A stretch of DNA of 64,000 nt from an uncultured Acidimicrobiaceae bacterium (GCA_963719125.1 CAVRAT010000015.1:77782-141781), one strand, 5' to 3'. Counted from the stretch's first letter, positions 27,846 through 49,298 are shown. The notes: a model not told the origin generated them from the letters alone. Numbers and translations are program-made.

Positions 27846-28063
27846 ACGTCCTCGCGCGGCCGTGGCGGGCGCCGTGCCGTCTGGCTCGCGCCGGGGGCGC
27901 GGGCGGGCGCTACAGGGTGCCGTGGGAGCGTCGGGCAGTCCGGCGGCAGGGATACGCGCTATCGTGAACCGGTGAGGGGGCGGCCCTTCCTCGTGACGGT
28001 GGAAGGGAGGCCGGTGGTGACAGTAACAGCACTGGGTCGGGAGTCTGAGGCCGAGAGCCGATA

Positions 28064-28909
28064 GTGACGCTGTTGGGAGCGGACAGGAAGCGACTCGAGC
28101 CGCCCGCTACGGACTGCCGGACCGGTATCACGAGCACGCGCGCGGGACAGCGCCGACTGCGACCGTCGGATCCCTCGGTCTCGGTTGTCATCCCCGCGAA
28201 AAACGAGGGCGAGAACATCTCCTGGGTGTTGAGCCGCCTGCCGGACTGCGTCAAAGAGGTCATCGTTGTCGACGGGCGGTCCGAGGACAGCACAGCCGCG
28301 ATCGTCAGGTCGGTGTGCCCCGCGGCCAAGGTGATCGAGCACGGCAACTCTGGAAAAGGGAACGCAATTGCGACCGGCCTGCTCGCCGCTGAAGGCGACG
28401 TGGTCGTGATGCTGGACGCCGACGGGTCGATGGACCCGGTCGAGATCCTGCTCTATGTTGATGCTCTCTGCGCGGGGGCCGACCTTGTGAAGGGGTCCCG
28501 AACAATCGCAGGCGGTGGCTCTCAGGACTTGTCCTTTGTGAGGAGGGTCGGGAATCGTGCCCTTCGACTCTTCTCGAACGTTGGCTATCGCCAGTCGTGG
28601 AGCGATCTCTGCTACGGCTACGCCGCGTTCTGGAAGGACTCTCTCGATCACCTCGGTCTCGTTGAGTTGTGCGCACAACGTCCCGAGCGCCAGGCATCCA
28701 CGTTGTGGCGCGGACCCTGGTACGGCCATGGTTTCGAGATCGAGGCGCTGCTCTACTGCAGGGCAGCTCGTGCCCACATGCGCATAGTCGAGGTCTTCAG
28801 TCATGAGTACAAGCGGCGCAACGGTGAGTCGCACCTCGCCACATGGCGGGACGGCGGTCGCGTCATGTTCACGATTCTCAAGGAGCTTCGGTGGCAACCA
28901 CGTCGGTAG
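28064..28909 (+). CDS. Family 2 glycosyltransferase (polyprenol-phosphate glycosyltransferase/DPM1-like)
   Basis: VSVVIPAKNEGENI..VIVVDGRSEDST..GKGNA..VVMLDADGSMDP..VKGSR resembles GtrB/Ppm1/DPM1-type GT2 enzymes. Confidence 0.8.
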   Translation: MTLLGADRKRLEPPATDCRTGITSTRAGQRRLRPSDPSVSVVIPAKNEGENISWVLSRLPDCVKEVIVVDGRSEDSTAAIVRSVCPAAKVIEHGNSGKGNAIATGLLAAEGDVVVMLDADGSMDPVEILLYVDALCAGADLVKGSRTIAGGGSQDLSFVRRVGNRALRLFSNVGYRQSWSDLCYGYAAFWKDSLDHLGLVELCAQRPERQASTLWRGPWYGHGFEIEALLYCRAARAHMRIVEVFSHEYKRRNGESHLATWRDGGRVMFTILKELRWQPRR

Positions 28910-29838
28910 TCGTCTGCTCCTACACGATGTCCCGGTGGGAGAACCTGTGTGCCACTCTCGAGGGGCTTGAGCGTCAGAGCCGGCTACCCGACGAGATCCT
29001 CCTCGTGGCCGACCACAATCCCGAGCTGTCCCACGCACTGGCATCGCTCGGGGTGGGTCGTGTCCTTCTGCATACAGGTGCCCGCGGCTGCGCGGGTGCC
29101 CGAAACCACGGTTTGCAGGCGGCCAACGGTGAGCTCGTCGCCTTCCTCGACGACGACGCCCTCCCCGAACAGGACTGGCTCGACCGGCTCGTGGCGCCGC
29201 TCGAGGCGAGCCCGTCGGTGGTCGCGACCGGTGGCTGGGTTCTGCCCGACGGCGGCAACGTGGCTGCCTGGTACCCAAAGGAGCTTTACTGGGTCTTCGG
29301 CTGTTCCTGGGCAGGCCTGGAAGCGCGCCAGACGTTGCGCAACCCGATCGGAGCGTCCATGGCCTGGCGTCGGGGCGTCCTGTCGGATGTCGGCGGGTTC
29401 AGCGTGGCGATCGGGCATGTGGGCAACTGGAGCGGGGCAATCGGCGGGTGCGAGGAGACGTTGGCCGGGATCCAGTCGACCGCACTCACGCGGGGGATGA
29501 TCGTGCACGCCCGCGATGCCGTTGTGCACCACTACGTCGGGCCCGAAAGAGTCAGGTTCAGCTACTTGTTGCGTCGTGGCTTTGGAGAAGGCACATCGAA
29601 ATGGGTAGTCCGGAGTGTGACCGGCGAGCCGCTGGGCGACGAAAAGGCGCACTCTCGCCGGATTGCCGCTGCTATCGTCACGTCGCTCGCGTTTCCTGGA
29701 CGGTGGCGGACGGCGCTCTACCTCACGGGTGGGCTGGGCGCGACTGCAGCCGGGTACCTCTACGGGCGCTTCAGCCTCGGCGCGGTCCGCCTCGAGCAAT
29801 GCGAGTCCCCTTCGAAGGCTTGGAAGGTCTCGACATGA
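28891..29838 (+). CDS. Family 2 glycosyltransferase
   Basis: GTG at 28891 preceded by AAGGAG. TSVVVCSYTMSRW..ILLVADHNPE..VAFLDDDALPEQDWL. The annotated start 28843 is probably an extension. Confidence 0.85.
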   Translation: MATTSVVVCSYTMSRWENLCATLEGLERQSRLPDEILLVADHNPELSHALASLGVGRVLLHTGARGCAGARNHGLQAANGELVAFLDDDALPEQDWLDRLVAPLEASPSVVATGGWVLPDGGNVAAWYPKELYWVFGCSWAGLEARQTLRNPIGASMAWRRGVLSDVGGFSVAIGHVGNWSGAIGGCEETLAGIQSTALTRGMIVHARDAVVHHYVGPERVRFSYLLRRGFGEGTSKWVVRSVTGEPLGDEKAHSRRIAAAIVTSLAFPGRWRTALYLTGGLGATAAGYLYGRFSLGAVRLEQCESPSKAWKVST

Positions 29839-30773
29839 ACGGCCCTGACCAGAACCGATCAGGTCGGCTCAGACTTCGCGATCACGGCGGTCCGATTGCC
29901 GTCATGGTGTTGCTGGCCATGGTCGCGGGCGTGGCGGTGTACTGCCTGACGGCCAGCTCGCCCGCCAACGCCACCTTGCACCAGCCCGGCGTTCATGGCA
30001 GTGCACGAGCACATGGCCGCCTGTCTTCGGTCCAGTGGACGACAGTGTTTGACGACAATTTCTCCGGCACGGCAGACTCGTCCCTCGGTCCGTCCTGGCG
30101 CGTCTATACGGGCACAGGCATAGGGATCGGACAGTTTGTCGATTCGTCGTCTGTGGTCCACGTCGACGGCCAAGGCCATCTCGTCGTCGGGGCTACGGAG
30201 AGCCCACAGGGGTGGCTCTCCGGCGAGGTCGAGACCACGCAAGCCTACATGCCCGGTCCGGGCCAGGACATGCTCGTCGAGTCGCGCATCGAGCTGCCCG
30301 CGGGCGGCCGGGGCTACTGGCCTGCCTTCTGGGGACTGGGTCTTCCGGCAGTCACGAACCCGAAGGCAGCGCCCATGGCCGGTGAGGACGATTTTGCTGA
30401 GACGATCAACAACGATCCCTGGGTCGGCCAGTTCATGCACTGCGGCATCTCGAACCGCGATGGACCCTGCGGTCTTGACACCCAGGTGGAGACCCCGCTC
30501 GGCGTCCCCTCGGGCGACAGCGGCTGGCACGTGTACTCGTGGCTGTGGTGCAACAAGGGCAGCAACTCTTATGTGGCCTTCTATATCGGCAACACGCTCG
30601 AGATGAAGGTGACCGAACAGCAGATCGGCGCGAAGTACTGGACGCTCTCGTTCGACCACCCGTACGTGTTCATCTACGACCTGGCCATCGGTGGCTGGGC
30701 AAGCCCGCCGGGCCTCTCGACCGCACCGAGCTCGTCCATGAAGGTCGACTACCTCCGGATCGAGCTCTCGTGA
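29835..30773 (+). CDS. Membrane-anchored glycoside hydrolase family 16-like protein
   Basis: The ATG overlaps the upstream stop (ATGA). N-terminal TM anchor (IAVMVLLAMVAGVAVYCL). GH16-type catalytic motif ExDxxE (GEDDFAE). Beta-jelly-roll-like ..WHVYSWLW....VAFYIGN... Confidence 0.75.
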   Translation: MNGPDQNRSGRLRLRDHGGPIAVMVLLAMVAGVAVYCLTASSPANATLHQPGVHGSARAHGRLSSVQWTTVFDDNFSGTADSSLGPSWRVYTGTGIGIGQFVDSSSVVHVDGQGHLVVGATESPQGWLSGEVETTQAYMPGPGQDMLVESRIELPAGGRGYWPAFWGLGLPAVTNPKAAPMAGEDDFAETINNDPWVGQFMHCGISNRDGPCGLDTQVETPLGVPSGDSGWHVYSWLWCNKGSNSYVAFYIGNTLEMKVTEQQIGAKYWTLSFDHPYVFIYDLAIGGWASPPGLSTAPSSSMKVDYLRIELS

Positions 30774-30782
30774 GTCCCAGGA

Positions 30783-32699
30783 ATGATCACCTCGTCTGGG
30801 ACCCTGACATCTCCTGAAGACGTCCCAGACGAGGGCAGAGGCGCTCCGGCCGGGCCAACCGCAGCAGACGTCCTGACGACCCCCACGAGCCACCGGTTGG
30901 TGGTCGTCTCGGCATTCGTCTCGTCGATCATCTGTCTGGTCGCGGCCTACTTCGTTCCCCGGCTCGCGATTTCGACCATGTTCGGCCTGTTCTGGCTGGC
31001 GATGATCATCCTCGTCGGTGCATCGACGTGGGTGCTTTTCGTCGGACGCTTCTCGGACTGGGCCCGTCTTGTCACCCTGACTGCAGTGAGCGTCGTCACC
31101 TATCTCCCGAAGTTGTTCCGCAGCTACCGGCGGCCGGCGTACCTGGACGAGCTGCTTCATCTCGGCCAGGCGCGTCTTGTGCAGCAGGGAATCCTCATGG
31201 GCCACAACTCCCAGGACCCGACAGTCGGTTACTTCCCGCTCTATCAGTTGCTCGTGGTCGCTATTCACGATCTCGCCCGCTTGTCCTTGTGGGACAGCGA
31301 CTTGCTTGTCGCCGGGCTCGGCCATGTCGCCATCGTGCTTGGCATCTGTGTTCTCGCCCGGCAGGTGACCGGGAGCGTGCGGATCGCAGCGACGGCAGGA
31401 TTGCTCTACGCCATCGGACCATCCGTGCTCTTCTGGCTGAGCGAGGCCTCCTACGAGTCGGTCGGCTTACCGCTCGCCCTGTTCACGGCGCACGCATGCC
31501 TGCGCGTTGCGGCCGAGCAACGTCGGAGATGGCTCTGGGTCGCGGCCGCGGGGATGATCGCGACGACCAGTGCCCAGCCGGTGTCCGGGCTGTTCCTCGC
31601 CTGCTTCCTCCTCGTCATGGGGCTCTCGGATTCCTACCGGGGTGGTGCCTATCGCCGTTTCGGACGGGTGCCGGTTCTCCTCCTGTTCGGCCTCGGCTCC
31701 GCGGCCGTCAACCTCGTCTGGATCGCCACCACGAACTGGGCTGTGATCTGGACTTACGTGCTGCCGGGCAGCTCCGCCTTCACGAGCGCGTTGTCGGCCG
31801 TCGCCCACTTCGCCGACCACCGGAGCTTCTTCCAGGGTTCCGGGCTTCCCGCATACGAGAGGTACTGCGGCGAGGCCACCCTTGTGCTGGTCCCGCTGGC
31901 CCTGATCGCATGTTTCGTCCTCTATCGCCGGGGGAGTCTCCGCCAGTCGATGAGCGGGCGGGAACGGGTCGTGCTCCGGGGGTGCTTCGTCCTCGGGACG
32001 CTCTTTGTCCTGTCGTATCCCTTCGACCTGTCCCCGACCTCTGTCACCTGGGTGCACCGGTCTTGGCAGCTCGTCTGGGTCGGGGTCTGCCTGCTGTTCG
32101 CCTACCTGATCGCGCGTGTCACGGATGACACCGCCCCGCGGACTGCCGCGGCAAACCATTGGTTGAAGGCAGGCGTGGTCGCCTTCGTGCTCGTGACCCT
32201 TGTCGGCAATACCTCTGTCAACGCTCCCGCCAGCTACATGTTCGCGGTGCCCTACCAGCTCGGTTCCGGGGCCGGACTGGTGACGAGCGACCAGCTCGAT
32301 GCGGCCTCGTGGATGCGGCTCAACGCTCCCGGCGCCGTGATCGCGTCTGACGATGACACCGAGGTGGTGCAGTGGGCATACGGCGGCACACTTAGTGCTC
32401 CCGGCGCCTTTCCTACCTGGGAATTGACCTTCGGCGGGACGCAACTCGGCTCTGTCGCACAGCGGGACGTGAGGCAGTACCGCGTGGGGTACCTGATCGT
32501 TGACAAGCTCATGTACCACGAGACGAGTGCACGCGGGTACCTCTATTCGCCAACGGAGCCGCACGCCTTTCACGAGTCGCCGGTGCCTCTGGCGGCCTAC
32601 GAGCGGCTGGTGACGGCGAGCTGGATGCGCCTCGTCTACTCCAACCCCCAGATCGCGATCTTCAAGCTCTTGCCACCAATGCAGTCGGAGCCGTCGTGA
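30783..32699 (+). CDS. Large polytopic membrane protein, GT-C-like glycosyltransferase or polymerase candidate
   Basis: 638 aa with at least 10 hydrophobic segments followed by a soluble C-terminal domain. The first extracytoplasmic loop has ..RRPAYLDELLHLGQ.., reminiscent of the D-E motif of PMT/ArnT-type GT-C enzymes. Confidence 0.55.
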   Translation: MITSSGTLTSPEDVPDEGRGAPAGPTAADVLTTPTSHRLVVVSAFVSSIICLVAAYFVPRLAISTMFGLFWLAMIILVGASTWVLFVGRFSDWARLVTLTAVSVVTYLPKLFRSYRRPAYLDELLHLGQARLVQQGILMGHNSQDPTVGYFPLYQLLVVAIHDLARLSLWDSDLLVAGLGHVAIVLGICVLARQVTGSVRIAATAGLLYAIGPSVLFWLSEASYESVGLPLALFTAHACLRVAAEQRRRWLWVAAAGMIATTSAQPVSGLFLACFLLVMGLSDSYRGGAYRRFGRVPVLLLFGLGSAAVNLVWIATTNWAVIWTYVLPGSSAFTSALSAVAHFADHRSFFQGSGLPAYERYCGEATLVLVPLALIACFVLYRRGSLRQSMSGRERVVLRGCFVLGTLFVLSYPFDLSPTSVTWVHRSWQLVWVGVCLLFAYLIARVTDDTAPRTAAANHWLKAGVVAFVLVTLVGNTSVNAPASYMFAVPYQLGSGAGLVTSDQLDAASWMRLNAPGAVIASDDDTEVVQWAYGGTLSAPGAFPTWELTFGGTQLGSVAQRDVRQYRVGYLIVDKLMYHETSARGYLYSPTEPHAFHESPVPLAAYERLVTASWMRLVYSNPQIAIFKLLPPMQSEPS

Positions 32700-33959
32700 G
32701 GCTCGGCGAGGGGCAGTGGCGACGCCTGCCGCTTCTCGGCGGCACGCTGAGCCTGCTCGTGGTGCAAGCGGCGACGTCCTCCACCGGCTACTTCTACTGG
32801 CTCATCGGCGCCAGGTCCTATCCCTCGCACGAGATCGGGGAGGCAGCCAGCATCACCTCGATCTCGATAGTCGTGGCACTGGTCGCCGGCCAGGCGATCG
32901 TGGCCTCACTTATCGTCCGGCTTCCCCGCAGCGACGCTCAGCGGGCAGTTCTCGCGTCTTCGGCGCTCTTAGCCGGAGCGGTTGCCTGTGCTCTGTCCGT
33001 AGTTGGACTCGTTGCCCTTCTCGCGTTCGTTCCCGCCCTGGGCGTGCTGCACCAGGCCGGGGTGGCCTTCGCCATGATCGTCGTCTGCGTGAGCCAGACC
33101 GTCGGCCTCGTCGTCGACGGTGCCGCGTTCGCCCTCGGCAGGTTCCGCGTTCTCGTTGGCCGGAACGCCGCCTTCGGAGCCGGGAAGTTGGCCCTCGTGG
33201 CGGTGATGGCGGCTGTCGGAGTGGGAACGGGGACCGACGTGCTCGTGGGCTCGTGGGCCGCGGCGGGGACACTCACGTCGTGCTGGGCGCTGTGGAGGGT
33301 CTGGAGGGTCACCCGCGGCTCGGGCTGGTCGTTCGCCACGATCCGGCCCGGCCTCGGCTACCAGACGATCACGGCGATCAGCGCCACGGTGCCGCCTCAG
33401 CTGCTCCCCACCCTCGTTGCGGCTCAAGTGGGTGCGTCTCTCGCCGGCGACTTCTCGCTCACCTGGTTGCTCGGCGGGCTGTGCTTCTCGATCTCTCCTG
33501 CCGTCGCTCAGGCGATGCTGGTGACGCACGAGAGCGATCTCGCCCGTTCCACTCGTTATGCGGCGCTGACCATCGGCCTCATGCTCGTGATACCGGTGAC
33601 ACTGTTCCTGACCTACGGGCACAAGATCCTTGGGTTCTTCGGCCCTTCCTACAGCCGCTACGGAGCGGTGCTGCTCGTCTGGCTTGCCGTCTCGACGGCG
33701 CCCAACGCCATCACGAACGTCGCCGTCGCCCGGTGGCGGGTCCGGGAGAGGCTGCGCCCCGCCGCCGCGCTCGAGCGGCCTTACGGCCGCCGTGACGCTC
33801 GGGCTCGTGATCGGCCCCCTCCGGGCGACCCACGGTGGTCTCGGCTCGGTCGGACTGGCGTGGCTCATCGCCCAGGTGGTCGGCTGTGGGTTTGTCCTCG
33901 GCCGGGCGATGTTCCTCCGCCCATCGGTAGGCGCCAAGCTCGAGACGGTGCCGACGTGA
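32696..33959 (+). pseudogene. Second Wzx/MOP-type flippase, apparent frameshift near 33740-33780
   Basis: GTGA overlap with the upstream gene. Polytopic until ..NVAVARWRVRE. The last TM helices (..LTAAVTLGLVIGPL..LAWLIAQVVGCGFVLGRAMFL) lie in another frame ending at 33959. The in-frame continuation to 34090 is Arg/Pro/Gly-rich nonsense. Confidence 0.6.
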
Positions 33960-34086
33960 CGGAGCGACGGATGGGGACATCGTCGCCGGGAGAGCGCCGC
34001 GGCCCGACTGGCGGAACGGGCGTCAACGAGTACCGGCTCAGGAGCGTCCCACGGCCGTTGCGGGCTTCACCCGGCGAGTTGACACG

Positions 34087-35214
34087 ATGAGGGTGGCCCT
34101 CGTCACGAGCGCCTACCCTCCCCATCTCGGTGGCGTCGAACGCCACGTGCAAGGACTCGCGCAGAGCCTGGCGGGCCTTGGATGTGAGATTGAAGTGCTC
34201 ACTCAGGCTCCGCGAGGCGCCTCACCTTCGGTGGATCAATCGGATGGACTCGTCGTGCGTCGCTGGCCGGCGAGCGGGCCTTCCCAGACCGCTCTCTTTT
34301 CGGTCGGCCTGTTCCGGTACCTGAGAGCGGCACGAGGTCGCTATGACGTCGTCCACGCCCACAACTACCATTCTGCGGCACCTGCGATGAGCTACCTGTC
34401 GGGTTGTCGCCCGCTGGTCGTCTCGACCTACCTGCATGCCCGGCCCGCGTCTTTCGTCGCGAGGGTCTTGCACGGGCCTTACGGGATCGTTGGGCGGAGG
34501 ATGTTGCGGGCGGCATCGAGTGTGATCGCCCTCTCGTCGTCCGAGGCGGACCTGGTGGCACAGCGCGTGCCCCGGGTGCGACCGGTCGTCGTCCCGAGCG
34601 GGGTTGACGCAGGCCGTTTGCGGGCGGCGCAGCCCAAGGAGAAGACCGCTCCGGTCGTCCTTTGCGTCGGGCGACTGACTGCGTACAAGGGTGCGGAGCG
34701 CGTCCTCGAGGCGGTGCCCTTGTTGGGTGAAGCGCGACTTGTTGTCGTGGGCAGCGGGCCCGAGGCGGCCACACTCCGACGATTGGCAGAAAGGCCCGGC
34801 TTCAGGGAGAAGGTGCAGCTCATGGGGACAGTCGACGACGACGAGCTCGCCCGCTGGTATGCGACCGCGGACGTCGTCATATCGATGTCGTCATATGAGT
34901 CGTTCGGGATCGTCGTCCTCGAGGGGCTTGCCGCGGGCACCCGGGTCGTGGCAAGTGACATTCCCGCTCACCGCGACATGCGGCAGTTCGACGAACACGG
35001 TTCCCTGCACCTCGTCCCGCTCGCCAGTTCACGCGAGGCGGTCGCGAAGGTGGTTCGCGACGAGCTGGCGATGGGGCGCGCCACGCCGAGCTCGACAGTT
35101 CCGAACTGGGAGACGGTGGCACAACTCCACGTCGACCTGTACGAGGCCGTCCTCGCAAGACAGTCGGCTTTGAGCCGTCGGAGAGCCAACCGGGGCACCC
35201 GTCGTGGCGGGTGA
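34087..35214 (+). CDS. Family 4 (GT-B, group 1) glycosyltransferase
   Basis: MRVALVTSAYPPHLGGVERHV.. N-terminus and ..SSYESFGIVVLEGLAAG.RVVASDI (E-x7-E region). Confidence 0.9.
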   Translation: MRVALVTSAYPPHLGGVERHVQGLAQSLAGLGCEIEVLTQAPRGASPSVDQSDGLVVRRWPASGPSQTALFSVGLFRYLRAARGRYDVVHAHNYHSAAPAMSYLSGCRPLVVSTYLHARPASFVARVLHGPYGIVGRRMLRAASSVIALSSSEADLVAQRVPRVRPVVVPSGVDAGRLRAAQPKEKTAPVVLCVGRLTAYKGAERVLEAVPLLGEARLVVVGSGPEAATLRRLAERPGFREKVQLMGTVDDDELARWYATADVVISMSSYESFGIVVLEGLAAGTRVVASDIPAHRDMRQFDEHGSLHLVPLASSREAVAKVVRDELAMGRATPSSTVPNWETVAQLHVDLYEAVLARQSALSRRRANRGTRRGG

Positions 35215-35393
35215 GCGTGGAGATCGCCGCTGCCGTCACAAGCCGAGGTCCCGGTGGGGCCGCAAGGGTCGTGTCGGGGTCGTTCGTCAATCCGTGTGGG
35301 CAGCCCGAGGTACGGGCGGCGGGGAGCGGCGTCGCAGGGCTTTGCGTTCGGCAAACCTTGTCTGGTAGAGCCGTGCTGTGAAACCGGTGTCAG

Positions 35394-36700
35394 TTGATCG
35401 CCGGCGACCCCGGCTGGTGGTGGCCGCACGGCTTCGGTTCGGTACCCCCACTGCAGATCGCGGAAGCTGCGTCAGTTCTGTGTGACATCGTCTGGATCGT
35501 CGACGAGAGCGTTCCGGAGAGTGCCTTCACCTGTCAGTTGTTGAGGAAGGTCGGGCCTGTGGTGAATACCGCCGGCCTGTCATCGCAGGAGGTCGCTTCG
35601 TTATTGCGTCCGCACTGTCCCCAAGGGGTGATGGCCTATCGAGGGGACGACATCGTGCCGCTTGCGCTGATAGCCGAGGAACTTGGGCTCAGCTATCGCA
35701 CACGCGAAGTGGCTGGCGCTTTGTGGACAAGCTCCTGCAGCGCGAGGCGCTGCGAAACGGTGGCGTGCCGTCGCCGCCTTGCTGGGCGGTCCCAGCCGAC
35801 AGCAGCCCCGCCGCCGTCGAGACTCTTGCCGCGGCAGTGGAATACCCGGCCGTGCTCAAGCCGCGCATGGCCAATGCCAGTCGGTACGCGACGCCCGTCG
35901 CCGACGCGGGCGATCTCGTCCGCCAGATCGCCCAGCTCCCACAAGAGGCTGGGGGCGAGACCGGCATGTACGTCGAGCAGTAACTTCCGAGCCTTGTCAC
36001 GTGGACGGGCGAGCGTTTCGGCGACTACCTGTCGGTAGAGAGCCTGGTGAGCTCCGGCGAGATCAGCCATGTGGCCGTGACCGGGCGGTTCTCGCTGGCC
36101 GAGCCTTTCCGGGAAACCGGGTTCTTCATACCCGCTGAGCTGCCGCAATCTCAGCTCGACGCTGTGCTCGAACTCGCCACGGCCGCCCTGCGAGCGCTCG
36201 AAGTGAGGAACGGTGACTGCCACACCGAGATCAAGCTGACCCCGGACGGCCCCCGTGTGATCGAGGTGAACGGCAGGCTCGGTGGGGGCATTCCAGAGAT
36301 GCTGCTCCAGGCAAGCGGCGTGCCGCTCTTCGAGCTCTCGATGCGCGCCGCGCTCGATGAGCGGGTGGTCGTGAACCACTTGGTCCCCTGCCGCAGAGTC
36401 GGCTGGCTCTTCGAATTCCAGCCCCCGACCGATGCCTGCCGGGTCTTGAGCATCCAAGGCCTCGACCGGTTGGCCAGGCTCGCCGGGGTGAACGCGGTCT
36501 TCGTGAACCGGGCGCCCGGCGACGAGATCGACTGGCGAGCAAGTGGTGGCAGCCACTTCATCTACTCGGTCTCCGGGGTGTCGGCGGACTACGACGGACT
36601 CCTCGAGATCAACCGCTTTCTCCGTGAAGAAGTGTCGATCGTCTACGAGTTCGGCGACTCCGCGCCTTTCGACGGGGAACTGTCAGCCACTAATTTCTGA
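35394..36700 (+). pseudogene. ATP-grasp ligase paralog, inactivated (1-nt deletion near 35718-35725 and TAC to TAA nonsense at 35981-35983)
   Basis: Collinear with 37950-39221 over its full length in three ORF pieces (35394-, 35723-35983, 36047-36700). Where the intact paralog has VEQYIPSL, this copy has VEQ*LPSL. Confidence 0.8.
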
Positions 36701-36733
36701 CCAGCGCTGCACCGGCTCAGACCGGCAGGCCAC

Positions 36734-37876
36734 TTGATTGGACCGGCGTTCACTATGGCCTACCGGACGATTGTCTGCACCGGGCACGACGGTTTCGAAC
36801 AGGTGCGAGGTCACTTCGAGGCACTCGCTTGTCACGCGCGGTACTTCACCCAGTTGCCGGAGTGGCTGGGGAGCCTCACAACAGATGCAGTTTCGTGGTT
36901 TGCGGTCGTGGACGAGGACCGCACCGTCGCGGTGGCCGCCCTCAGCCCACAGCGAGCAAGGTTCTGGGGCAAGGAACTCAGGCTCCTCGGTGGCGTACGG
37001 CAGGTTCTCGACGGCAGGCAGGAGCATGGCTTGCCGTTGGGCGCCGTTGCGATCGCCCACCCCGAGGCAGATCTCAAGACCACAGCCAGGGCATTGCTGG
37101 TCGGCTATCGGCAGGCCGGTGCCAACTGGGACGTACTGTGGCTCGACGCGGTTCGCGAAGGATCACCCTGGCTGGGGTCCGGATTCGAGTGTGACATGCG
37201 GGAAGTGGAATCCAGCGTGCCCGTTCTCGACACCACAATGCCGAGCAGTCAGTTCTGGGCAGCGGCGTCGGCACACCTCAGGCATGGGCTGAGCACGAAC
37301 CGGAGGCGCATGGACCGCGAGGGACGGACCAGCGCCGTTGTCGAGGCGCGCACGCCGGACGAGGTGGCCACCGCGTTCGACGACTTCGTGGAGTTGGAAG
37401 GCAGGGGCTGGAAGCGTCGTGTGGGTGCTTTCGTGAAACGGCCGGAGGCGGCTGACTTTGTCAGACGCTTCTTCGTGAGTGCCGCCGCGTCGCGTCGCGT
37501 GTCGATCCGATCCTTGCTCATCGACGATCGCCTGGCAGCCTCTCAGCTCTCGGTACGGGTAGGAGACTCGATCGCGTTGGTGAAGATCGCATACGACGAG
37601 ACCTTGCAGCATCTGAGCCCCGGGAACCTGCTGATGGCCGATCTCATCTCGAAGGCGTGTGACGATCCCACCGTCAACCGCATCGATTTCGGGGAACGGG
37701 CGAGTTGGTTCGACCGCTGGGGCACAGTCACGTCACCGACATACGACCTGATCGCCTTCAACCCACGCTCGCCGGCGGGACTCGCGGCCGGAACGGTCTG
37801 GAAGGCTCTGCGCGCCGTGGGAAAGCGGCCACGCTACTCAGACTCACCCGATGACCCCGGAGTCCACATGCATTGA
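36734..37876 (+). CDS. FemAB/CelD-like GNAT acyltransferase (PF13480-like)
   Basis: ..FDDFVELEGRGWKRRVGAFV..SIRSLLIDDRLAASQLSV..KIAYDETLQHLSPGNLLMADLI. Same family as 2-937 and 1005-2018. Start is TTG 36734 or ATG 36755. Confidence 0.75.
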   Translation: MIGPAFTMAYRTIVCTGHDGFEQVRGHFEALACHARYFTQLPEWLGSLTTDAVSWFAVVDEDRTVAVAALSPQRARFWGKELRLLGGVRQVLDGRQEHGLPLGAVAIAHPEADLKTTARALLVGYRQAGANWDVLWLDAVREGSPWLGSGFECDMREVESSVPVLDTTMPSSQFWAAASAHLRHGLSTNRRRMDREGRTSAVVEARTPDEVATAFDDFVELEGRGWKRRVGAFVKRPEAADFVRRFFVSAAASRRVSIRSLLIDDRLAASQLSVRVGDSIALVKIAYDETLQHLSPGNLLMADLISKACDDPTVNRIDFGERASWFDRWGTVTSPTYDLIAFNPRSPAGLAAGTVWKALRAVGKRPRYSDSPDDPGVHMH

Positions 37877-37949
37877 AGAGGCTGAGCTTGGCTGAGCCGC
37901 GGCGGGACTGCTGCTTGTACTTTGCACAACCATCTGGTAGTCCCTTGCT

Positions 37950-39221
37950 GTGCCACCGGTGACCGCCGACCGCCGGCAACCTCTGCTCGTGGTGGGGCAC
38001 GGCCATCGCTCCGTGCCTCCCATGCAGATCGTGGAGGCGGCGTCAGAGCTCTGCGACATCCTGTGGCTCCTCGACGAGAGCTCTCCGGACGGTGCCTTCA
38101 CCAGCCGCTTGCTCAGGAAACTCGGGACCGTGGTGAACCTTGCCGGCCCGTCACCGGAGGAGGCTGCCTCGCTGCTGCGGTCGTATTCCCCCGACGGGGT
38201 GGTGGCCTATCGCGACGAGGACATCGTCCCTCTTTCGCTCATAGCCGCAGAACTGGGGCTCGAGTACCGCACACCCGAGGTCGCCAGGCGCCTCGTGGAC
38301 AAGCTCTTGCAGCGAGATGCGCTCCGCAAGGGCGGACTGCCTTCACCGTCTTGCTGGGCGGTCCCCGTCGACCGGAATCCTGCCGCGATCGAAGAGTTAG
38401 CCGCGGAGGTGCAATACCCTGCGGTCCTCAAACCGCGTATCGGAAACGGCGGCCAGTACACGATGCCGGTCGCCGACGCGGGCGATCTTCTCCGTTCGGT
38501 TGCCCAGCTCCCGCCCGAGGCAGGCGGCGACACGGGGATGTTCGTCGAGCAGTACATCCCGAGTCTCGCGACAGCGCCGGACGAGCGATTCGGCAGCTAC
38601 GTGTCGGTGGAGAGCCTGGTAGCCGGAGGTGAGATCAGCCATCTCGCGGTGACGGGGCGGTTCCCCCTGGCCGAGCCGTTCCGGGAGACGGGTTTTTTCA
38701 TCCCTGCTGACCTCCCCCGGGCTCAGCTTGCGGAAGTGCTCGCAGTCACCACGGCTGCGCTGCACGCGCTCGGTGTGAGGACCGGTGACTGCCATACAGA
38801 GCTCAAGCTGACACCGGACGGTCCCCGAGTGCTCGAGGTGAACGGCAGGCTCGGTGGCGGGATCCCTGAGATGCTCCTGCGGGCGAGCGGCGTGTCGGCC
38901 TTCGAGCTCTCGATGCGCGTCGCCCTCGGTGAGCCGGTCGTCGTGGATGGCCCCGTCCCGTGCTCCAGGGTCGCCTGGCGCTTCTTGTTCCAGCCTCCGA
39001 CTTCTGCCCACCGCGTCGTCGCCATCGACGGCCTCGACCGGCTGTCCGAGCTCCCGGGGGTCAACGAGATCTATGTGAACAGGTCGCCTGGCGATCCCGT
39101 CGACTGGCGCGAGGGGACTCGCCATTACGTCTACTCGGTCTTCGGGGCGTCCGCGGATTACGACGGGCTTTTGGAGATCAACCGTTTCCTCCACGAGGAA
39201 GTGTCCATCGTCTACGAGTGA
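37950..39221 (+). CDS. ATP-grasp domain ligase (carboxylate-amine/L-amino-acid-ligase-like)
   Basis: Pre-ATP-grasp N-domain, then ..YPAVLKPRIGNGGQYTMPV..MFVEQYIP..SVESLV..GEISHLAVTGRF..CHTELKLTPDGPRVLEVNGRLGGG: classic ATP-grasp motifs. Confidence 0.85.
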   Translation: MPPVTADRRQPLLVVGHGHRSVPPMQIVEAASELCDILWLLDESSPDGAFTSRLLRKLGTVVNLAGPSPEEAASLLRSYSPDGVVAYRDEDIVPLSLIAAELGLEYRTPEVARRLVDKLLQRDALRKGGLPSPSCWAVPVDRNPAAIEELAAEVQYPAVLKPRIGNGGQYTMPVADAGDLLRSVAQLPPEAGGDTGMFVEQYIPSLATAPDERFGSYVSVESLVAGGEISHLAVTGRFPLAEPFRETGFFIPADLPRAQLAEVLAVTTAALHALGVRTGDCHTELKLTPDGPRVLEVNGRLGGGIPEMLLRASGVSAFELSMRVALGEPVVVDGPVPCSRVAWRFLFQPPTSAHRVVAIDGLDRLSELPGVNEIYVNRSPGDPVDWREGTRHYVYSVFGASADYDGLLEINRFLHEEVSIVYE

Positions 39222-41101
39222 GGCGGCTCGAGCGCGGACTCGGTCGCCCCTTTGCTGGTCAGCTCGAGCGAGCGTCTGAGCCCATGATCCTCTCGACGCA
39301 CTGCTGCGCGTCGAGGAACGCCCGCAGGCAGCTCTTCGGCGAGGGGACGTAGTGGGTGAAATAGCGCACGCCCCTCGGTGAGCGAGCCGAACAGCCAGAT
39401 TCTTCGCGCCGGCTGCCCGTAGGCGTCGGTTGGGTGGAACTTCTCGTTCAAGGCAACGCTTCCCACCTCTGTCGCGTCGTAGCAGAGGGGCTGGAGCCTC
39501 CCGTCGTGCCAGAGGTTCGTCAGCAAGGAGGAACTCGAGCGCGAGACGGTGGGGTTCTCGAGGTGACCGTGGATGAGCCAATTCACCTTCTCGGAGTACG
39601 TGTGCTCCAGGTGCCTCGAGCCCAGCAGGAATCCCTCGGCCCCGATGGGCTCGACCCACGGCGAGGGCCCGAAGGGCACCGTGACGACGTCCGCGTCGAT
39701 GAGCGCCAGGAGCTGCTTGGAACGGATCGCCGGTGGGCCGGCCACGATGCGGTTGACCCTCGTCTTGATGTTGTCGCGGAAGTCGAGGTAGGAGTCGAGT
39801 GTGAGGCCGCTGAACTCGATCACTGTGCGCATGAGGTCCCGCAGGTGACGGAGCACCTCGTAGGCGGACTTCACCGGACATGAGCCCCCGCGGAGAGACT
39901 CGCGTAGGTCGGCCTCGACCAACGAGTAGATCTGCGACTCGTAGTCCTTGGAGGAGACGTAGTCACTACGGGGGCCGAAGAAATGCACCCAGGGGTCGAA
40001 ATCGCCGTAGCGACCGGCGAGGCCGTTGACCACGGTCCCATACGACCCGTCGTGCCAGGCCCGGCCCAGCTGACTCGTCACTTCCTCGCTGGCTGCTCGC
40101 CCCTTTGCGAGCAGGGCCGACTGGGCGAAGTACCTGATCTGCATCTCTGTGAGGACGAGGGGCAGGACTGCGGAGCGAAAGTCGATCTGGCGCCTGGGCC
40201 TCCCCGTCGCCTGACCCCCCTGGACCTCCCCGATCGCCTCTTTGGTGCAGACGACGGCTTGGAACTCGTCGCTCTCGTCGACGGTCGCCACCGCCTTCGA
40301 GCAGTAGGGGAACCCGCTCCGGGAAAAGAGCCGCAGCGTCGGTTCGTCCCCCGAGCCGACATAGCGCAGCCGGTCGCCGGACTCGACGAACGAGCCGCCT
40401 CTTCCGACAGTGAGGGCGATGACGACGTCGGTTGCCACGAGCCCCATCCCCTCGACTCCGACCGTGGCCCCGCGTGGGATGGCCTTCGTGTAGCGATCAA
40501 CCGGGTAAGGCCGCGGTATCAGTGCTGGGCTCGCCTGCGGCTCGACGTTGTCGGTGTGTCCCGAAGTCAAGATGACGTGATCGACGTCGAGGTACTCCCC
40601 GTTTGCCAGCAGGACGCGCTCACGCTCGCCGCGGCTCACGATGTTCACCGCAGCGGTGTGGTGGTGGACGATCTCCACCTTCGCGGGCGCCGACGCCACG
40701 AGCGTCGCATAGAACCACTGCAGGTACTCGCCCATGAGCCGCCGCGGAAGGTAGTCGTCGCCGGTTATCTCGCGGCCAACGGCGTCGACCCGACAGGTGT
40801 CACCCACCCAGCGGTAGCCGGCTGCGGTGACCCACTCGTATAGTCCGACGGCGTAGCGGGGCGATGGGCCTTCGTCCTGCCAGGGATAGAGCGATATCTG
40901 CCCACAAGGTGTGTTGAGGATCAGATAGTCGGGCTGATCGACCGCGTAGACGCCTGATCCCGGCGTGCCCGGCTCGACGACGTGAACGCGCGCAGATCCC
41001 CACTGTGAGCGCGAACCTGTCACGATGCGTTCGAGGAAGCTGAGCCCCCACGAACCCAGTCCGATGACGGCAATTTCCATCAGAACATCCTGGTCCGGCA
41101 A
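39212..41101 (-). CDS. FAD/NAD(P)-binding domain protein (NAD_binding_9-like, uncharacterised flavoprotein)
   Basis: IAVIGLGSWG dinucleotide-binding motif near the N-terminus, ..HVILTSGHTDN.., about 620 aa. The alternative start ATG 41080 gives MEIAVIGLG. Confidence 0.75.
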   Translation of the reverse strand: MPDQDVLMEIAVIGLGSWGLSFLERIVTGSRSQWGSARVHVVEPGTPGSGVYAVDQPDYLILNTPCGQISLYPWQDEGPSPRYAVGLYEWVTAAGYRWVGDTCRVDAVGREITGDDYLPRRLMGEYLQWFYATLVASAPAKVEIVHHHTAAVNIVSRGERERVLLANGEYLDVDHVILTSGHTDNVEPQASPALIPRPYPVDRYTKAIPRGATVGVEGMGLVATDVVIALTVGRGGSFVESGDRLRYVGSGDEPTLRLFSRSGFPYCSKAVATVDESDEFQAVVCTKEAIGEVQGGQATGRPRRQIDFRSAVLPLVLTEMQIRYFAQSALLAKGRAASEEVTSQLGRAWHDGSYGTVVNGLAGRYGDFDPWVHFFGPRSDYVSSKDYESQIYSLVEADLRESLRGGSCPVKSAYEVLRHLRDLMRTVIEFSGLTLDSYLDFRDNIKTRVNRIVAGPPAIRSKQLLALIDADVVTVPFGPSPWVEPIGAEGFLLGSRHLEHTYSEKVNWLIHGHLENPTVSRSSSSLLTNLWHDGRLQPLCYDATEVGSVALNEKFHPTDAYGQPARRIWLFGSLTEGRALFHPLRPLAEELPAGVPRRAAVRREDHGLRRSLELTSKGATESALEPPHS

Positions 41102-41262
41102 GAGGCCATCACGCGAGGTTACTACGGTGTCGCAACCCTCCCGAACGGAGACGGCCTCAGGCAGACCCAGACGTTGTGTCGCCGAATTGTCACTCAGAGC
41201 AGTCGGCCGGGACCTTCGCCGCCCACGGGGCGCACGGTTTGCACCGGGTTAGGATCAGCCTT

Positions 41263-42393
41263 ATGCCTCCCGAGAAGCTGCACTGGTCTCACCTCTACAC
41301 CGAAGTCGTGACCTCCGGTCTGTGCACAGGGTGTTCGGCCTGCGTGGTCGTCTGCCCATACGACGTGCTTGGCTACAACGACCAGGACGGGGTGTACCGC
41401 CCGTTCCACGTCGCGGAGATGGGCGGGACGGACAACTGCACGCACGGCGAGAAGGGCTGCACCCTCTGCACGAGAGCCTGTCCGCGGTTCCGGACCTGGG
41501 AGCCTGAGATCGACGCCTTCCTCTTCGGGCGCGAACGCGAGGAGGACGAGGTCTACGGCATCGCACAGGACGTGATTCTTGCCCGGACCACCGACCCTGA
41601 GCTGCTGGCGGCCGGCCAGGACGGCGGCCTTGTTTCGGCGCTCTTGATCTGGGCTCTCGAGCACGACATGATCGACGCCGCCCTGGTCTCGGTCCTCGAG
41701 GGGGACGGGACCACCTGGAAGGCGGTGCCCGGAGTCGCCCGCAACAGGGATGAGGTGATCGCGGCTGCAGGCTCGCGCTACACCTATTCGGCCAATCCGA
41801 GCGCCTACGCGGCGGCGACCGAGGCAGGCGCGGAGCGCATCGCACTTGTCGGAATGGGCTGCCAGGCCTCGGCCCCGGCGGTCATGTCCGCGCGCAAGGC
41901 GGGCAAGGTCGCGCGGCGCTTCGTGCTGACGATCGGCCTTTTGTGCTCGAAGTCCTTCGACGACGCCATCTTCCCCGAGCTGTTCGAGGCCCGTTACGGC
42001 CTGGCCCGAGAGGACATCGTGAAGATGAACATCAAGGGTGTCTTCCAGGTGTGGACCCGCGACGGCGTGCTGCACGAGGTCCCGTTGAAAGAGGCGTACC
42101 CGTGGACGCGGGAGGGCTGTAACCACTGCCCCGACTTCGCAGCCGAGCACGCGGACCTCTCGGCCGGTGGCATCGGCGCCTTCCCCGACTGGACGCTCAC
42201 GATGGTCCGCACCGACCGGGGCCGGGAGCTGATTTCGGCGATGCAGACAGCCGGAGCCATCGAGGTGCGTTCCGCTTTCGACGACGACCCCGGCGCGGTG
42301 ACCCTGCTCCGCAAGCTCTCGCGTGTGAGCCGCCGGCGATGGCCGGAGGACGGAGAACAGGCTCCGAGGCGCATCCCGGTCGCAAGCACCTGA
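41263..42393 (+). CDS. FrhB/FdhB-family protein (coenzyme F420 hydrogenase/dehydrogenase beta-subunit-like) with N-terminal 2x[4Fe-4S] ferredoxin motifs
   Basis: CTGCSACVVVCP and CTLCTRACP cysteine clusters. ..GQDGGLVSALL..AAGSRYTYS..VGMGCQ..CPDFAAEHADLSAGGIG are typical FrhB_FdhB N/C domains. ATG at 41263. Confidence 0.8.
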   Translation: MPPEKLHWSHLYTEVVTSGLCTGCSACVVVCPYDVLGYNDQDGVYRPFHVAEMGGTDNCTHGEKGCTLCTRACPRFRTWEPEIDAFLFGREREEDEVYGIAQDVILARTTDPELLAAGQDGGLVSALLIWALEHDMIDAALVSVLEGDGTTWKAVPGVARNRDEVIAAAGSRYTYSANPSAYAAATEAGAERIALVGMGCQASAPAVMSARKAGKVARRFVLTIGLLCSKSFDDAIFPELFEARYGLAREDIVKMNIKGVFQVWTRDGVLHEVPLKEAYPWTREGCNHCPDFAAEHADLSAGGIGAFPDWTLTMVRTDRGRELISAMQTAGAIEVRSAFDDDPGAVTLLRKLSRVSRRRWPEDGEQAPRRIPVAST

Positions 42394-42413
42394 GGCGAAG
42401 GCCCCGAACGGAC

Positions 42414-43151
42414 TTACGCTCCAAGCTCGCGGGCCCGTGCGAGCACTGTGTCGAACATGTCCGCAGTCAGAAGACCGGTGAAGACGTTGCGCTGGCTCGG
42501 GTGGTAAGAGCAGAGCAATGTGCGAGGACCTGCTATCTGTGGGTGGCCTTGAGTACCTGAAGCACGCCCTTGCTGCGGCGCCAGTGGCAGCTCGAGGCCG
42601 TGAGCGAAACGCACCCGTTTCCCCTTTGTCGTTCCCGCAACATCAGGTAGGCGCCATAGCGCGTCGTAGGCGAAAGCGCCGAGAGCGAGCAGCACGCGGG
42701 CACCGGAAAGCTCTTGCAGCTCCGAGGAGAGGTAACGAGCGCATGTGTTGCGCTCGAGTGGGGTCGGCTTGTTGGCGGGCGGGGCGCAGCGTACCGCGGC
42801 GGTGACCCAGGTCCCGGACAACTCAAGGCCGTCGTCGATCGACCGGCTGAGCGCCTGGTTGGCGTAGCCCGCGCGATGCAGAGCTGCGTACAGGAAGTTG
42901 CCGGAGCGGTCCCCCGTGAACATCCGGCCGGTTCGGTTCCCGCCGTGGGCCGCCGGAGCCAGGCCGACGATCACGAGCCGCGCCTCCGGGTCGCCGAAGC
43001 CCGGCAGAGGACGCTCCCAGTATCTTTCCGTGCAATGCGAGACCGGTGGGTTGGACGCCGCGGCGTGGCGCCAGGCTACGAGCCTCGGGCAGAGGGAACA
43101 ATTCGCCACCTCGCGACCGATTTGCTCCAGGCGTCCCGCGGTCGATTGCAC
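42414..43151 (-). CDS. Uracil-DNA glycosylase superfamily protein (family 4/5, UdgB-like)
   Basis: ..CSLCPRL..GFGDPEARLVIVGLAPAAHGGNRTGRMFTGDRSG..SYHPSQRN. The start is uncertain (GTG 43151 proposed). The upstream part of the 411-aa ORF is shadow. Confidence 0.8.
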   Translation of the reverse strand: MQSTAGRLEQIGREVANCSLCPRLVAWRHAAASNPPVSHCTERYWERPLPGFGDPEARLVIVGLAPAAHGGNRTGRMFTGDRSGNFLYAALHRAGYANQALSRSIDDGLELSGTWVTAAVRCAPPANKPTPLERNTCARYLSSELQELSGARVLLALGAFAYDALWRLPDVAGTTKGKRVRFAHGLELPLAPQQGRASGTQGHPQIAGPRTLLCSYHPSQRNVFTGLLTADMFDTVLARARELGA

Positions 43152-43166
43152 GGGCCAAAGGCTACG

Positions 43167-43838
43167 GTGTCGGGCGTGCCGCCAACTCGCCCCAAACCGC
43201 TCCGCCCGACCGTGGTGTGCTTCGTCCGCCACGGGACGACGGCGACGACCGGCAAGGTGCTGCCGGGCCGGGCACGGGGCCTGCACCTGTCCGACAAGGG
43301 CTGGGATGAGGCGGCAAAGGCCGGCGAGGCCATTGCCGGTATATCCGTCTCGGCGGTGTACGCATCGCCACTCGAGCGGGCGAGAGAGACGGCTTCGGCA
43401 ATCTCCCAGCGTGTGGGCAAGCCCGTCGTTATTGAACGTGGGCTCGTCGAGTGCGACTTCGGGAGCTGGACCGGCGAGCCGTTGGCCCAGTTGCGCAAGC
43501 TTCCCGAGTGGCAGGCCGTCCAGCGCGTGCCCTCGAGTTTTCGCTTCCCCGGCGGCGAGTCGTTCGCAGAGCTGCAGGCCCGCATGGTTGACACCGTCGG
43601 AAGGCTCTGCACAGCGCACCCCGGCGAGTTCGTCGTTGCGGTGTCGCATGCGGACTGCATCAAGGTTGCACTAGCCAACGCTCTCGGCGTGCCGCTCGAT
43701 CTCTTCCAGCGGATCGTCGTCGCCCCTTGTTCGATCAGCACGGTCGTGTACAGCTCCGAGGGGCCGGCTGTCTTGGCCATGGGCGCGACCGGCGCGCCGC
43801 CGGCGGGCCTGCCTTCAACTCATGAGAGGTCGAGGTGA
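43167..43838 (+). CDS. Histidine phosphatase superfamily protein (MSMEG_4193/Rv2135c-like putative phosphomutase/phosphatase)
   Basis: ..VVCFVRHGTTATTGKVLPGR..LS.KG..YASPLERARETA..VSHAD.IK. RHG catalytic motif. GTG 43167 proposed. Confidence 0.8.
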   Translation: MSGVPPTRPKPLRPTVVCFVRHGTTATTGKVLPGRARGLHLSDKGWDEAAKAGEAIAGISVSAVYASPLERARETASAISQRVGKPVVIERGLVECDFGSWTGEPLAQLRKLPEWQAVQRVPSSFRFPGGESFAELQARMVDTVGRLCTAHPGEFVVAVSHADCIKVALANALGVPLDLFQRIVVAPCSISTVVYSSEGPAVLAMGATGAPPAGLPSTHERSR

Positions 43839-44395
43839 CTGAGGATTTCGAGCTTGCGAACCCCGACCGGGTGACGATCGGGACGGTCGGTCCCGTGGGC
43901 GAGCGCGTGTTCCTGTTCCAGGTGCGTGAGGGCCCCATCTTGAAGACGCTCAAGGTCGAGAAGGCCCAAGTCTCCGCGCTGGCGCGCTTTCTCGGCAGGA
44001 TGCTCGCCGAGCTCGAGCGCCCCGGGGAGCTGCCGTCGGGCGAAGATCTTGCTCTCGAGCCGTTCGGGGAACCGGATTTCGTGGTTCGCTCACTCGGTGT
44101 CAGCTACGACGACGACCTCGACCGCATCATCCTCGTCGCGGACGAGATCGACCGGACCGAAGCCGAGACTGAGGTCGAATCACTTTTCGATATCGCGGAG
44201 GATTCCGAGCCGGAAGCCGAGACGGGCGAGAGCGTACGGTTAGCGATGACCCGGGAGCAGGCGGCTGCGCTGGCCATTCGCGGGACGGAGCTCGTCGAGG
44301 CGGGCCGGCCGCCTTGCCCGCTCTGCGGGTACCCACTCGACCCGAGAGGCCACGTGTGCCCGAGGACGAACGGCCACCGTCCGCCGCTGACCTGA
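43835..44395 (+). CDS. DUF3090-family protein
   Basis: ..VTIGTVGPVGERVFLFQ..LKVEKAQV..GRPPCPLCGYPLDP.GHVCPRTNGH: conserved C-terminal Cys/His motif. GTGA overlap with the upstream gene. Confidence 0.85.
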   Translation: MTEDFELANPDRVTIGTVGPVGERVFLFQVREGPILKTLKVEKAQVSALARFLGRMLAELERPGELPSGEDLALEPFGEPDFVVRSLGVSYDDDLDRIILVADEIDRTEAETEVESLFDIAEDSEPEAETGESVRLAMTREQAAALAIRGTELVEAGRPPCPLCGYPLDPRGHVCPRTNGHRPPLT

Positions 44396-49262: not shown

Positions 49263-49298
49263 AAGCTGTCCCCTGGACACCGAGCAGAAGGGACGACG

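Follow-up and report, generated by a model that had tools for sequence, protein, structure and literature searches.

An uncultured Acidimicrobiaceae bacterium carries two ATP-grasp genes and a GNAT gene directly behind a cassette of glycosyltransferase (GT) genes, which raises the question of whether these three genes decorate a polysaccharide or serve another pathway. The DNA analysed, called the window in what follows, is a stretch of 64,000 nucleotides (GCA_963719125.1, CAVRAT010000015.1:77782-141781). Its + strand contains an accessory ATP-grasp gene (copy 1, 35378..36700), the GNAT gene (36755..37876), and a core ATP-grasp gene (copy 2, 37950..39221). The original prediction described this trio as co-oriented, which is the case, and placed its start at 35394, whereas the homology of copy 1 starts at a GTG codon at 35378. 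It proposed that the locus attaches amino acids or peptides to a glycan that contains uronic acid. The part of this proposal that concerns amino-acid and short-peptide chemistry stands, as copy 2 is placed in the L-amino-acid ligase (LAL) clade and the GNAT has a FemX-like fold. Formation of peptide bonds is thus supported, and decoration of a uronic-acid glycan is not. The family of copy 2 is probably the ligase of a conserved orphan pathway for an N-oxygenated amino acid or peptide, with the adjacency of the GT genes reflecting a variable insertion slot and not a shared pathway. This explanation is built on gene integrity, family placement, synteny, and co-occurrence, and it proposes from them the substrates, the product, and the role of the GNAT.

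The core ligase

Copy 2 is intact and encodes a protein of 423 aa. In Pfam it passes the cutoff of ATP-grasp_4 (PF13535; 30.3 bits, cutoff 27) and lies just under that of LAL_C2 (PF18603; 25.8 bits, cutoff 29.4). The only other Pfam matches at E <= 0.01 are CPSase_L_D2, ATP-grasp_3, and ATPgrasp_Ter, and a TupA-family match was not found among them. A profile made from 14 sequences has its best match in the PDB in BL00235 (3VOT, 9e-34), followed by BacD/YwfE (1e-23) and RizA (1e-12), with D-Ala-D-Ala ligases as weaker ATP-grasp matches. The AlphaFold model of copy 2 has a pLDDT of 88 and Foldseek TM scores of 0.76-0.82 to YwfE and BL00235 (YwfE 0.82). The columns K161, E200, E296, N298, and R300 are invariant in the 14-sequence alignment, and by analogy they would have nucleotide- or Mg-binding and catalytic roles. 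The motif HTE..K...GPRVxEVNGR is kept in 40 family members, including both copies of the window. Structure prediction, which had been suggested as a way of placing the ATP-grasp proteins, assigns copy 2 to the LAL clade and not to the amidoligase type, and its classification as a carboxylate-amine ligase of the LAL clade of ATP-grasp enzymes is supported.

The LALs of known structure (BL00235, 3VOT; YwfE/BacD, 3VMM/3WNZ; RizA, 4WD3) share with copy 2 the three-domain ATP-grasp fold, the LAL C-terminal domain, the invariant Lys, and the Glu/Asn/Arg motif columns. In contrast, their identity to copy 2 is 18-21%, and LAL_C2 of copy 2 remains below its cutoff. The partners of the copy 2 family also differ, comprising an N-oxygenase, a MetA-type homoserine O-acyltransferase (HTS), MetY, and a carrier-protein system. 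The substrates of copy 2 may be carrier-bound rather than free amino acids.

Cj1438, named in the original prediction as a glucuronate amidoligase, had served there as the precedent for glycan amidation. Cj1438C of the Campylobacter jejuni capsule is a TupA-like ATP-grasp protein fused to a GT2 (PMC11800379). It resembles copy 2 in being an ATP-dependent carboxylate-amine ligase of the ATP-grasp superfamily encoded beside glycosyltransferases. Copy 2, however, is free-standing, has no TupA match, groups with dipeptide ligases, and keeps its partners where no GT is near. The two proteins are different branches of the superfamily and the precedent does not apply, which counts against a role of copy 2 in decorating a glycan.

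Conserved partners of the ligase family

The copy 2 family was found in 80 loci in a scan of GTDB species representatives, and 85 non-redundant loci were used for tblastn with reference proteins. The 80 loci are mostly from metagenome-assembled genomes (MAGs) of Acidimicrobiales/Acidimicrobiaceae, together with several Mycobacterium records that include the apparent isolates UM_CSW and 94-17. The top source-named homologues of copy 2 are labelled as Acidimicrobiales MAGs. HTS is a neighbour of the ligase in 70 of the 85 loci, MetY in 67, and a CreE/PcxL-type flavin N-oxygenase (NAD_binding_9) in 65. A hydrolase fusion is present in 38 loci, an acyl carrier protein (ACP) in 36, a phosphopantetheinyl transferase (ACPS) also in 36, and an amino acid:[acyl-carrier-protein] ligase (aa:CP ligase) in 16; at least one gene of the carrier system occurs in 49. 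A GT homologue, counted within 10 kb of the ligase, is present in 13/85, and a PF13480 GNAT in 4/85. Homologues of the flippase, the priming transferase, and the UDP-glucose/GDP-mannose-type dehydrogenase (UGDH) are present in 0/85. Unbiased clustering of open reading frames (ORFs) gave an identical ranking of neighbours and added an AMP-binding ligase in 38 loci, which takes the place of the aa:CP ligase in most distant loci. The partners of the ligase family across these loci are the N-oxygenase, HTS, MetY, and the carrier system. Membership in a glycan locus, which the original prediction had assumed, does not agree with these counts.

Relatives with a ligase 72-83% identical to copy 2 have a single ATP-grasp gene between two conserved groups, with no GT between. 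The first group consists of a PP-binding protein, a hydrolase of ~600 aa, a 298-aa protein, ACPS, MetY, and HTS. The second consists of the NAD_binding_9 protein, an FrhB-like protein, a UDG homologue, His_Phos, and DUF3090. With 409 bits on NF005479 (cutoff 357), the 298-aa protein is identified as a SerRS-like aa:CP ligase, and with 99 bits on PRK07081 (cutoff 72), the PP-binding protein is identified as the carrier dedicated to this ligase. The hydrolase is a fused alpha/beta-hydrolase pair that matches TIGR03101 and TIGR03100 in tandem, both below their cutoffs.

Distant loci typically have the N-oxygenase, ATP-grasp, HTS, and MetY genes, in this order, in a tight co-directional operon (L041, L058, L087, and L051). 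In L019 (4602-13612) eight co-directional genes encode ACPS, ACP, the aa:CP ligase, the hydrolase fusion, the N-oxygenase, the ATP-grasp ligase, HTS, and MetY. L007 (8615-13149) and L086 have the order ACPS, aa:CP ligase, ATP-grasp, hydrolase, and in L007 the aa:CP ligase and ATP-grasp genes overlap by 4 nt. Additional genes in distant loci encode luciferase-like monooxygenases, PhyH, an aldo/keto reductase, an amidohydrolase, FMN_bind_2, and a beta-eliminating lyase, and such tailoring genes are typical of a biosynthetic cluster. Lone paralogues of the ligase also occur in unrelated contexts, and no GTs were found near those in L013, L016, and L017.

PMC2922099, in a note added in proof, records the aa:CP ligases as neighbours of an ACP and a Rossmann-fold oxygenase. 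The operon of the relatives agrees with the systems of Mocibob et al. 2010 (cited in PMC2922099) in combining an aa:CP ligase, a carrier, and a phosphopantetheinyl transferase with ATP-grasp and a Rossmann-fold oxygenase. An association with ATP-grasp, HTS, and MetY is not mentioned in the relevant passage of PMC2922099, and the window differs from these systems in having none of their genes by tblastn. A literature search found no established biological role for SerRS-like aa:CP ligases, and a search for precedents of the alazopeptin type found nothing relevant.

The operon of N-oxygenase, ATP-grasp, HTS, and MetY genes is also seen in records labelled Mycobacterium (L041, L042, L051, L058, L067, L068, and L087), with ligases 44-47% identical to that of the window. 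This distribution suggests that the cluster has moved from one actinobacterial class to another, unless the MAGs are mislabelled.

The flavin N-oxygenase

The convergent partner of copy 2 is a PF13454 flavoprotein gene (39280..41101, − strand; Pfam 113 bits), a homologue of the N-oxygenases CreE, FzmM, and PcxL. Its L005 orthologue, which is 77% identical, matches PDB 8CP2 over the full length (E 1.6e-45). 8CP2 is the L-aspartate N-hydroxylase of Streptomyces sp. V2, from the CreE/FzmM/PcxL group (PMC10404684). Of the 8CP2 residues that this paper singles out, the aligned L005 orthologue retains R409, R412, and R416, while R13 is replaced by W, R266 by K, and R276 by E. The flavoprotein thus shares with CreE/FzmM (which convert aspartate to nitrosuccinate) and PcxL the full-length alignment and the catalytic Arg cluster, but differs in the entry-chamber residues R13 and R276, and in R266. 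Judged by this pattern, it probably N-oxygenates an amine that bears a carboxylate but is not aspartate. A partner of the CreD type (fumarase/argininosuccinate-lyase-type) was not noticed among the annotated conserved neighbour clusters, part of the clusters being annotated.

The best NCBIfam match of copy 2 (37950-39218) is to the ATP-grasp part of PRK02186 (1e-28), an 890-position model labelled 'argininosuccinate lyase'. The partner lyase of CreE is presumably a member of the argininosuccinate-lyase superfamily. Because N-oxygenases of the CreE type are normally paired with a lyase (PMC10404684), the match may be a lead if the model represents a ligase-lyase fusion.

The N-oxygenase gene is followed by a divergent gene on the + strand (41263..42393) for an FrhB/FdhB-like iron-sulfur flavoprotein of the F420 type (Pfam FrhB_FdhB_C/N and Fer4). 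It is 90% identical to its L005 orthologue and is present in 10/85 loci, which are close relatives only.

These neighbours bear on a reading in which the ligase works with HTS and MetY in primary methionine, homocysteine, or sulfur metabolism, without any secondary metabolite, and forms for example a Met- or homocysteine-containing dipeptide or, with the flavoprotein, a low-molecular-weight thiol. HTS and MetY accompany the ligase more constantly than any other neighbour and have a canonical appearance, and the block lies among housekeeping genes in close relatives. BL00235, the best solved relative of copy 2, is a ligase that prefers Met or Leu at the N-terminal position. However, the flavoprotein aligns over its full length with CreE/PcxL N-oxygenases and not with disulfide reductases, and distant loci are rich in adenylating enzymes and tailoring oxidoreductases. 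No SAM or other riboswitch was found when Rfam models were run on the window and on seven relative loci, and the copy number of the ligase varies from 1 to 3. A purely primary-metabolic role is therefore regarded as distinctly unlikely.

The glycosyltransferase cassette

The GT genes of the window belong to a six-gene glycan cassette (28049..35214, + strand) that encodes GT2, GT2, an unknown protein, two large Pfam-less proteins, and GT4. The cassette is treated here as context and not as a demonstrated partner of the ligases. Three further contigs carry it together with the accessory-ligase/GNAT pair. L088 is a contig from an independent ENA assembly and is 98.85% identical to window 28416-48679, and L094 and L095 are JGI metagenome contigs, 97.2% identical over window 30645-44843 and 95.4% identical over 29759-37482, respectively.

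Other relatives have one of these elements or neither. In L089 and L090, whose ligase is 88% identical, the GT cassette of the window lies between HTS and a single ATP-grasp gene, without a GNAT. L005 has the order ATP-grasp, ATP-grasp, GNAT, ATP-grasp directly abutting HTS, and no GT cassette. In L006 and L008, two ATP-grasp genes are separated from a third by a PF13480 GNAT of another kind (29% identity), which is encoded on the opposite strand. The cassette is missing from L001-L006, and in L001 and L003 the accessory-ligase/GNAT pair is missing as well. The GT homologue of close relatives is a GT2 beyond the housekeeping block. All four combinations therefore exist, and there is no obligate coupling of the GT cassette to the ligase/GNAT pair. 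On the evidence of synteny, a single variable slot between HTS and the ligase received the two in separate insertions.

In a competing reading, which has to be weighed against this arrangement, the ligases and the GNAT attach amino acids or short peptides to the polysaccharide of the adjacent cassette, possibly on a uronic acid for which the dehydrogenase at 49.3 kb is the source. In its favour, the window, L088, L094, L095, L089, and L090 all have the cassette immediately upstream and in the same orientation. GNATs of PF13480, the 'CelD/BcsL family', are known in polysaccharide loci, and one 40%-identical homologue of the cassette GNAT is near a PIG-L deacetylase and a GT4. The hydrolase fusion of the relatives and the acceptor proposed for aa:CP ligase systems, both discussed below with the pathway, also speak for it. 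Against it stand the rarity of GT homologues and the absence of flippase, priming-transferase, and UGDH homologues around the ligase family. In L089 and L090 the cassette has no accessory ligase or GNAT beside it, and in L005 and L006 the trio is present but the cassette is not. The trio recurs in L005 and L006/L008 in a neighbourhood that resembles a biosynthetic cluster and has no GTs between, and this largely refutes the glycan reading in the terms set by the original prediction. GNAT homologues with 53-57% identity occur as orphans, in contexts unrelated to this one.

The UGDH gene (49263-50609) is real, as had been predicted, but its role as the source of uronic acid for the trio is not supported. 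It is separated from the cassette by ~10 kb of conserved housekeeping genes. It belongs to a region of lower GC content that bears a transposase gene. Taken together, decoration of the cassette's polysaccharide is considered unlikely.

The cassette GNAT

The GNAT gene starts at ATG 36755, is intact, and encodes a protein of 373 aa that matches PF13480 (Acetyltransf_6, CelD/BcsL-like; 71.6 bits, cutoff 22). The AF2 model (pLDDT 87, pTM 0.87) is a tandem GNAT, and its top Foldseek match is Weissella FemX (E 1e-11, TM 0.58-0.65), followed by Sba18/Sbb17, FemA, and the MprF C-domain. A sequence search against the PDB gave no significant match, and a FemAB Pfam match was not found. The description of the protein as a CelD/FemAB-like GNAT is therefore correct for the PF13480 CelD/BcsL family and for the FemX-like fold, and not for membership in the FemAB Pfam family. 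The tandem-GNAT architecture is common to FemX/FemABX, Sba18/Sbb17 (aminoacyl-tRNA-dependent peptide synthases), and MprF, but their identity to the cassette GNAT is 10-15%, the TM score is ~0.6, and the GNAT belongs to PF13480 and not to FemAB. The model supports a fold like that of the FemX-type aminoacyl-tRNA-dependent transferases. The cassette GNAT may depend on aminoacyl-tRNA by this structural resemblance, and the use of acyl-CoA, as in BspF-like enzymes, is equally possible.

The GNAT of L005 is 72% identical to that of the window. The same slot between ligase paralogues is filled in L005 and L006 by two unrelated PF13480 GNATs, which are 29% identical and on opposite strands.

The structural matches raise a further reading, in which the ATP-grasp ligases would work with the FemX-like GNAT to assemble or modify a side chain or cross-bridge of peptidoglycan, in parallel to the FemX-type aminoacyl-tRNA transferases and ATP-grasp cross-link ligases of Gram-positive bacteria. 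The GNAT comes closest in structure to FemX, FemA, and their relatives, the weaker matches of the ATP-grasp profile include D-Ala-D-Ala ligases, and PMC2922099 documents both enzyme classes in the synthesis of peptidoglycan peptides. In contrast, no mur, fts, or pbp genes were seen in the neighbourhoods examined, and the conserved partners are the N-oxygenase, HTS, MetY, and the carrier-protein system. The GNAT and the accessory ligase are confined to a few close relatives (4/85 loci) and one of them is dispensable here, which fits a core wall function poorly. A role in the cell wall is accordingly judged highly improbable.

Two tandem PF13480 GNATs are also encoded at 2-2018 (+ strand), adjoining a GT2 and an IS21 IstB fragment. 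They are 49% identical to each other, and one has a weak match to the C-domain of Arg-tRNA-protein transferase (ATE_C). The original prediction called them paralogues of the cassette GNAT; they do share PF13480 with it, but the identity is only ~29% over ~100 residues.

The accessory ligase

Copy 1 is a LAL-type ATP-grasp paralogue and is a pseudogene in this strain. The ORF listing and a three-frame translation of 35394-36700 show it split over two frames with an additional in-frame stop. In comparison with copy 2 and the orthologues, an extra C at 35424 (+1) is the first lesion and a missing C at 35712 (-1) the second, and the third is TAA at 35981-35983, where copy 2 and the orthologues have TAC (Tyr). 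After reconstruction, the copy 1 protein is 71.4% identical to that of copy 2 (290/406), in agreement with the two-thirds identity estimated originally. In a neighbour-joining tree copy 1 groups with the accessory copies L005a and L006b, and copy 2 groups with the 'core' copies that adjoin the flavoprotein. The arrangement of two ATP-grasp genes flanking a GNAT is thus as described before, but copy 1 is not an intact gene with its three lesions, and of two supposedly working ligases one is dead in this strain.

An exact-pattern scan of metagenome contigs across the TAA site of copy 1 gave 0 matches. It was replaced by a protein-based scan, which found L094 and L095. All three lesions are common to L088, which has no difference from the window at any of them. 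L094 and L095 have none of the three and encode an intact 438-aa protein. A comparison of the window with L094 gives dN/dS ratios of 0.51 (copy 1), 0.33 (GNAT), 0.17 (copy 2), and 0.07 (FrhB-like gene). The presence of the lesions in L088, their absence from L094 and L095, and the dN/dS of 0.51 indicate a recent loss of the accessory ligase in the lineage of the window and L088, and a recent and real pseudogenisation would be the simplest reading of these alignments.

A systematic assembly error shared by the window and L088 may be the alternative, because the window carries single-base indels of its own. These are an extra C at 33772 and an extra C at 39371, both missing from L088, L094, and L095 wherever these contigs extend over the position. 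The first shifts the frame of a gene for a ~420-aa membrane protein of the GT cassette. The second, absent from L088 and L094, shifts the frame of the C-terminus of the PF13454 flavoprotein, which has tblastn high-scoring segment pairs in two frames. Each of the two indels may be an error of the assembly or, alternatively, a private mutation.

Copy 1 has a loop 'MANAS' in place of the 'IGNGG' of copy 2. Its interpretation as a sign of decay was rejected, as the intact L094 copy is identical there and other family members vary.

Other features of the window

The housekeeping block to the right of the FrhB-like gene consists of the UDG homologue (tblastn), His_Phos_1, DUF3090, and a GGDEF protein. 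Beyond it lie a further GT2 and then a region of lower GC with methyltransferase, UGDH, epimerase, and transposase genes. This region (48000-57000) has a GC of 0.60 compared with ~0.66, its transposase is of the DDE type, and it adjoins a gene of the Polysacc_synt flippase family. The region has the appearance of a glycan module that was acquired separately.

The left 27 kb of the window is rich in transposases and recombinases. Three tyrosine-recombinase (Phage_integrase) genes at 11959-15235 (− strand) are arranged head to tail with overlapping ends and encode 340, 324, and 440 aa. They are bordered by transposase genes (ISL3, DDE_Tnp_1, and a Mu-like C-terminal fragment), and this is the layout of a 'recombinase in trio' element. 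Rfam also reports a match to group II intron D1-D4-7 at 18486-18592 (− strand; 38.1 bits, gathering score 34), which adjoins a truncated ISAZ013-type transposase at 18595-19095. A scan of 34.9-41.4 kb for promoter and terminator consensus found sites no commoner than in shuffled sequence.

Proposed pathway

In the favoured explanation, copy 2 would most likely activate the carboxylate of an amino acid as an acyl-phosphate and join it to an amine, forming a dipeptide-like amide. The conserved module, seen in Acidimicrobiia and some Mycobacterium, would combine the ligase in an operon with the N-oxygenase, HTS, MetY, and, very often, an aminoacyl-carrier system. Its product would be a small N-oxygenated amino acid or short peptide derived from homoserine or methionine. 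One sub-lineage appears to have gained, immediately upstream of the core ligase, a FemX-like PF13480 GNAT and one or two additional ligase paralogues, which plausibly attach more residues. With its accessory ligase inactivated, this strain would retain the GNAT and the core ligase, and the carrier-system, HTS, and MetY genes are absent from the 64-kb window.

Several observations weigh against this explanation. By tblastn, the window contains no homologue of the aa:CP ligase, the carrier, the phosphopantetheinyl transferase, the hydrolase fusion, HTS, or MetY. The MetY of the relatives scores 552 bits on TIGR01326, above the cutoff, and this protein and HTS could be housekeeping methionine enzymes, in which case their co-occurrence with the ligase would partly be inherited synteny. 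A literature search found no description of the combination of N-oxygenase, ATP-grasp, HTS, and MetY. In the window lineage, the ligase genes follow the GT cassette in the same orientation at a distance of only ~165-275 bp, so that co-transcription is possible. The hydrolase fusion of the relatives resembles hydrolases of exosortase-A exopolysaccharide (EPS) loci. In addition, Iyer and Aravind (PMC2922099) proposed that aa:CP ligase systems aminoacylate a cell-surface sugar. Because of this proposed acceptor, a glycan end-point for the pathway is possible, although it is not the best-supported reading.

A more specific form of the N-oxygenated pathway can also be put forward. The eight-gene operon of the relatives would be the missing downstream pathway of the aa:CP ligases and would make, without a nonribosomal peptide synthetase (NRPS), an N-oxygenated peptide (hydroxamate, oxime, or nitro) derived from homoserine or methionine. 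The accessory ligase and GNAT would be a lineage-specific extension, and the hydrolase fusion might transfer the product onto a cell-envelope glycan. This form is speculative and unlikely in all its details.

Significance

The claim of glycan amidation, if true, would have assigned a rare chemistry to genes of Actinomycetota, but the evidence does not support it, and an annotation of the locus as a glycan amino-acylation cassette should be avoided. The window also illustrates that unrelated pathways can become neighbours through a variable insertion slot, which is misleading for reasoning from gene neighbourhoods. The locus is instead an orphan, widely conserved actinobacterial gene set and a variant of known non-NRPS systems of amide formation. 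This gene set joins an N-oxygenase with three non-NRPS routes to amide bonds, namely a LAL-type ATP-grasp ligase, a FemX-like GNAT, and an aminoacyl-carrier system with hydrolase-type transferases. Operons of the relatives such as that of L019 provide a defined eight-gene context for the aa:CP ligases.

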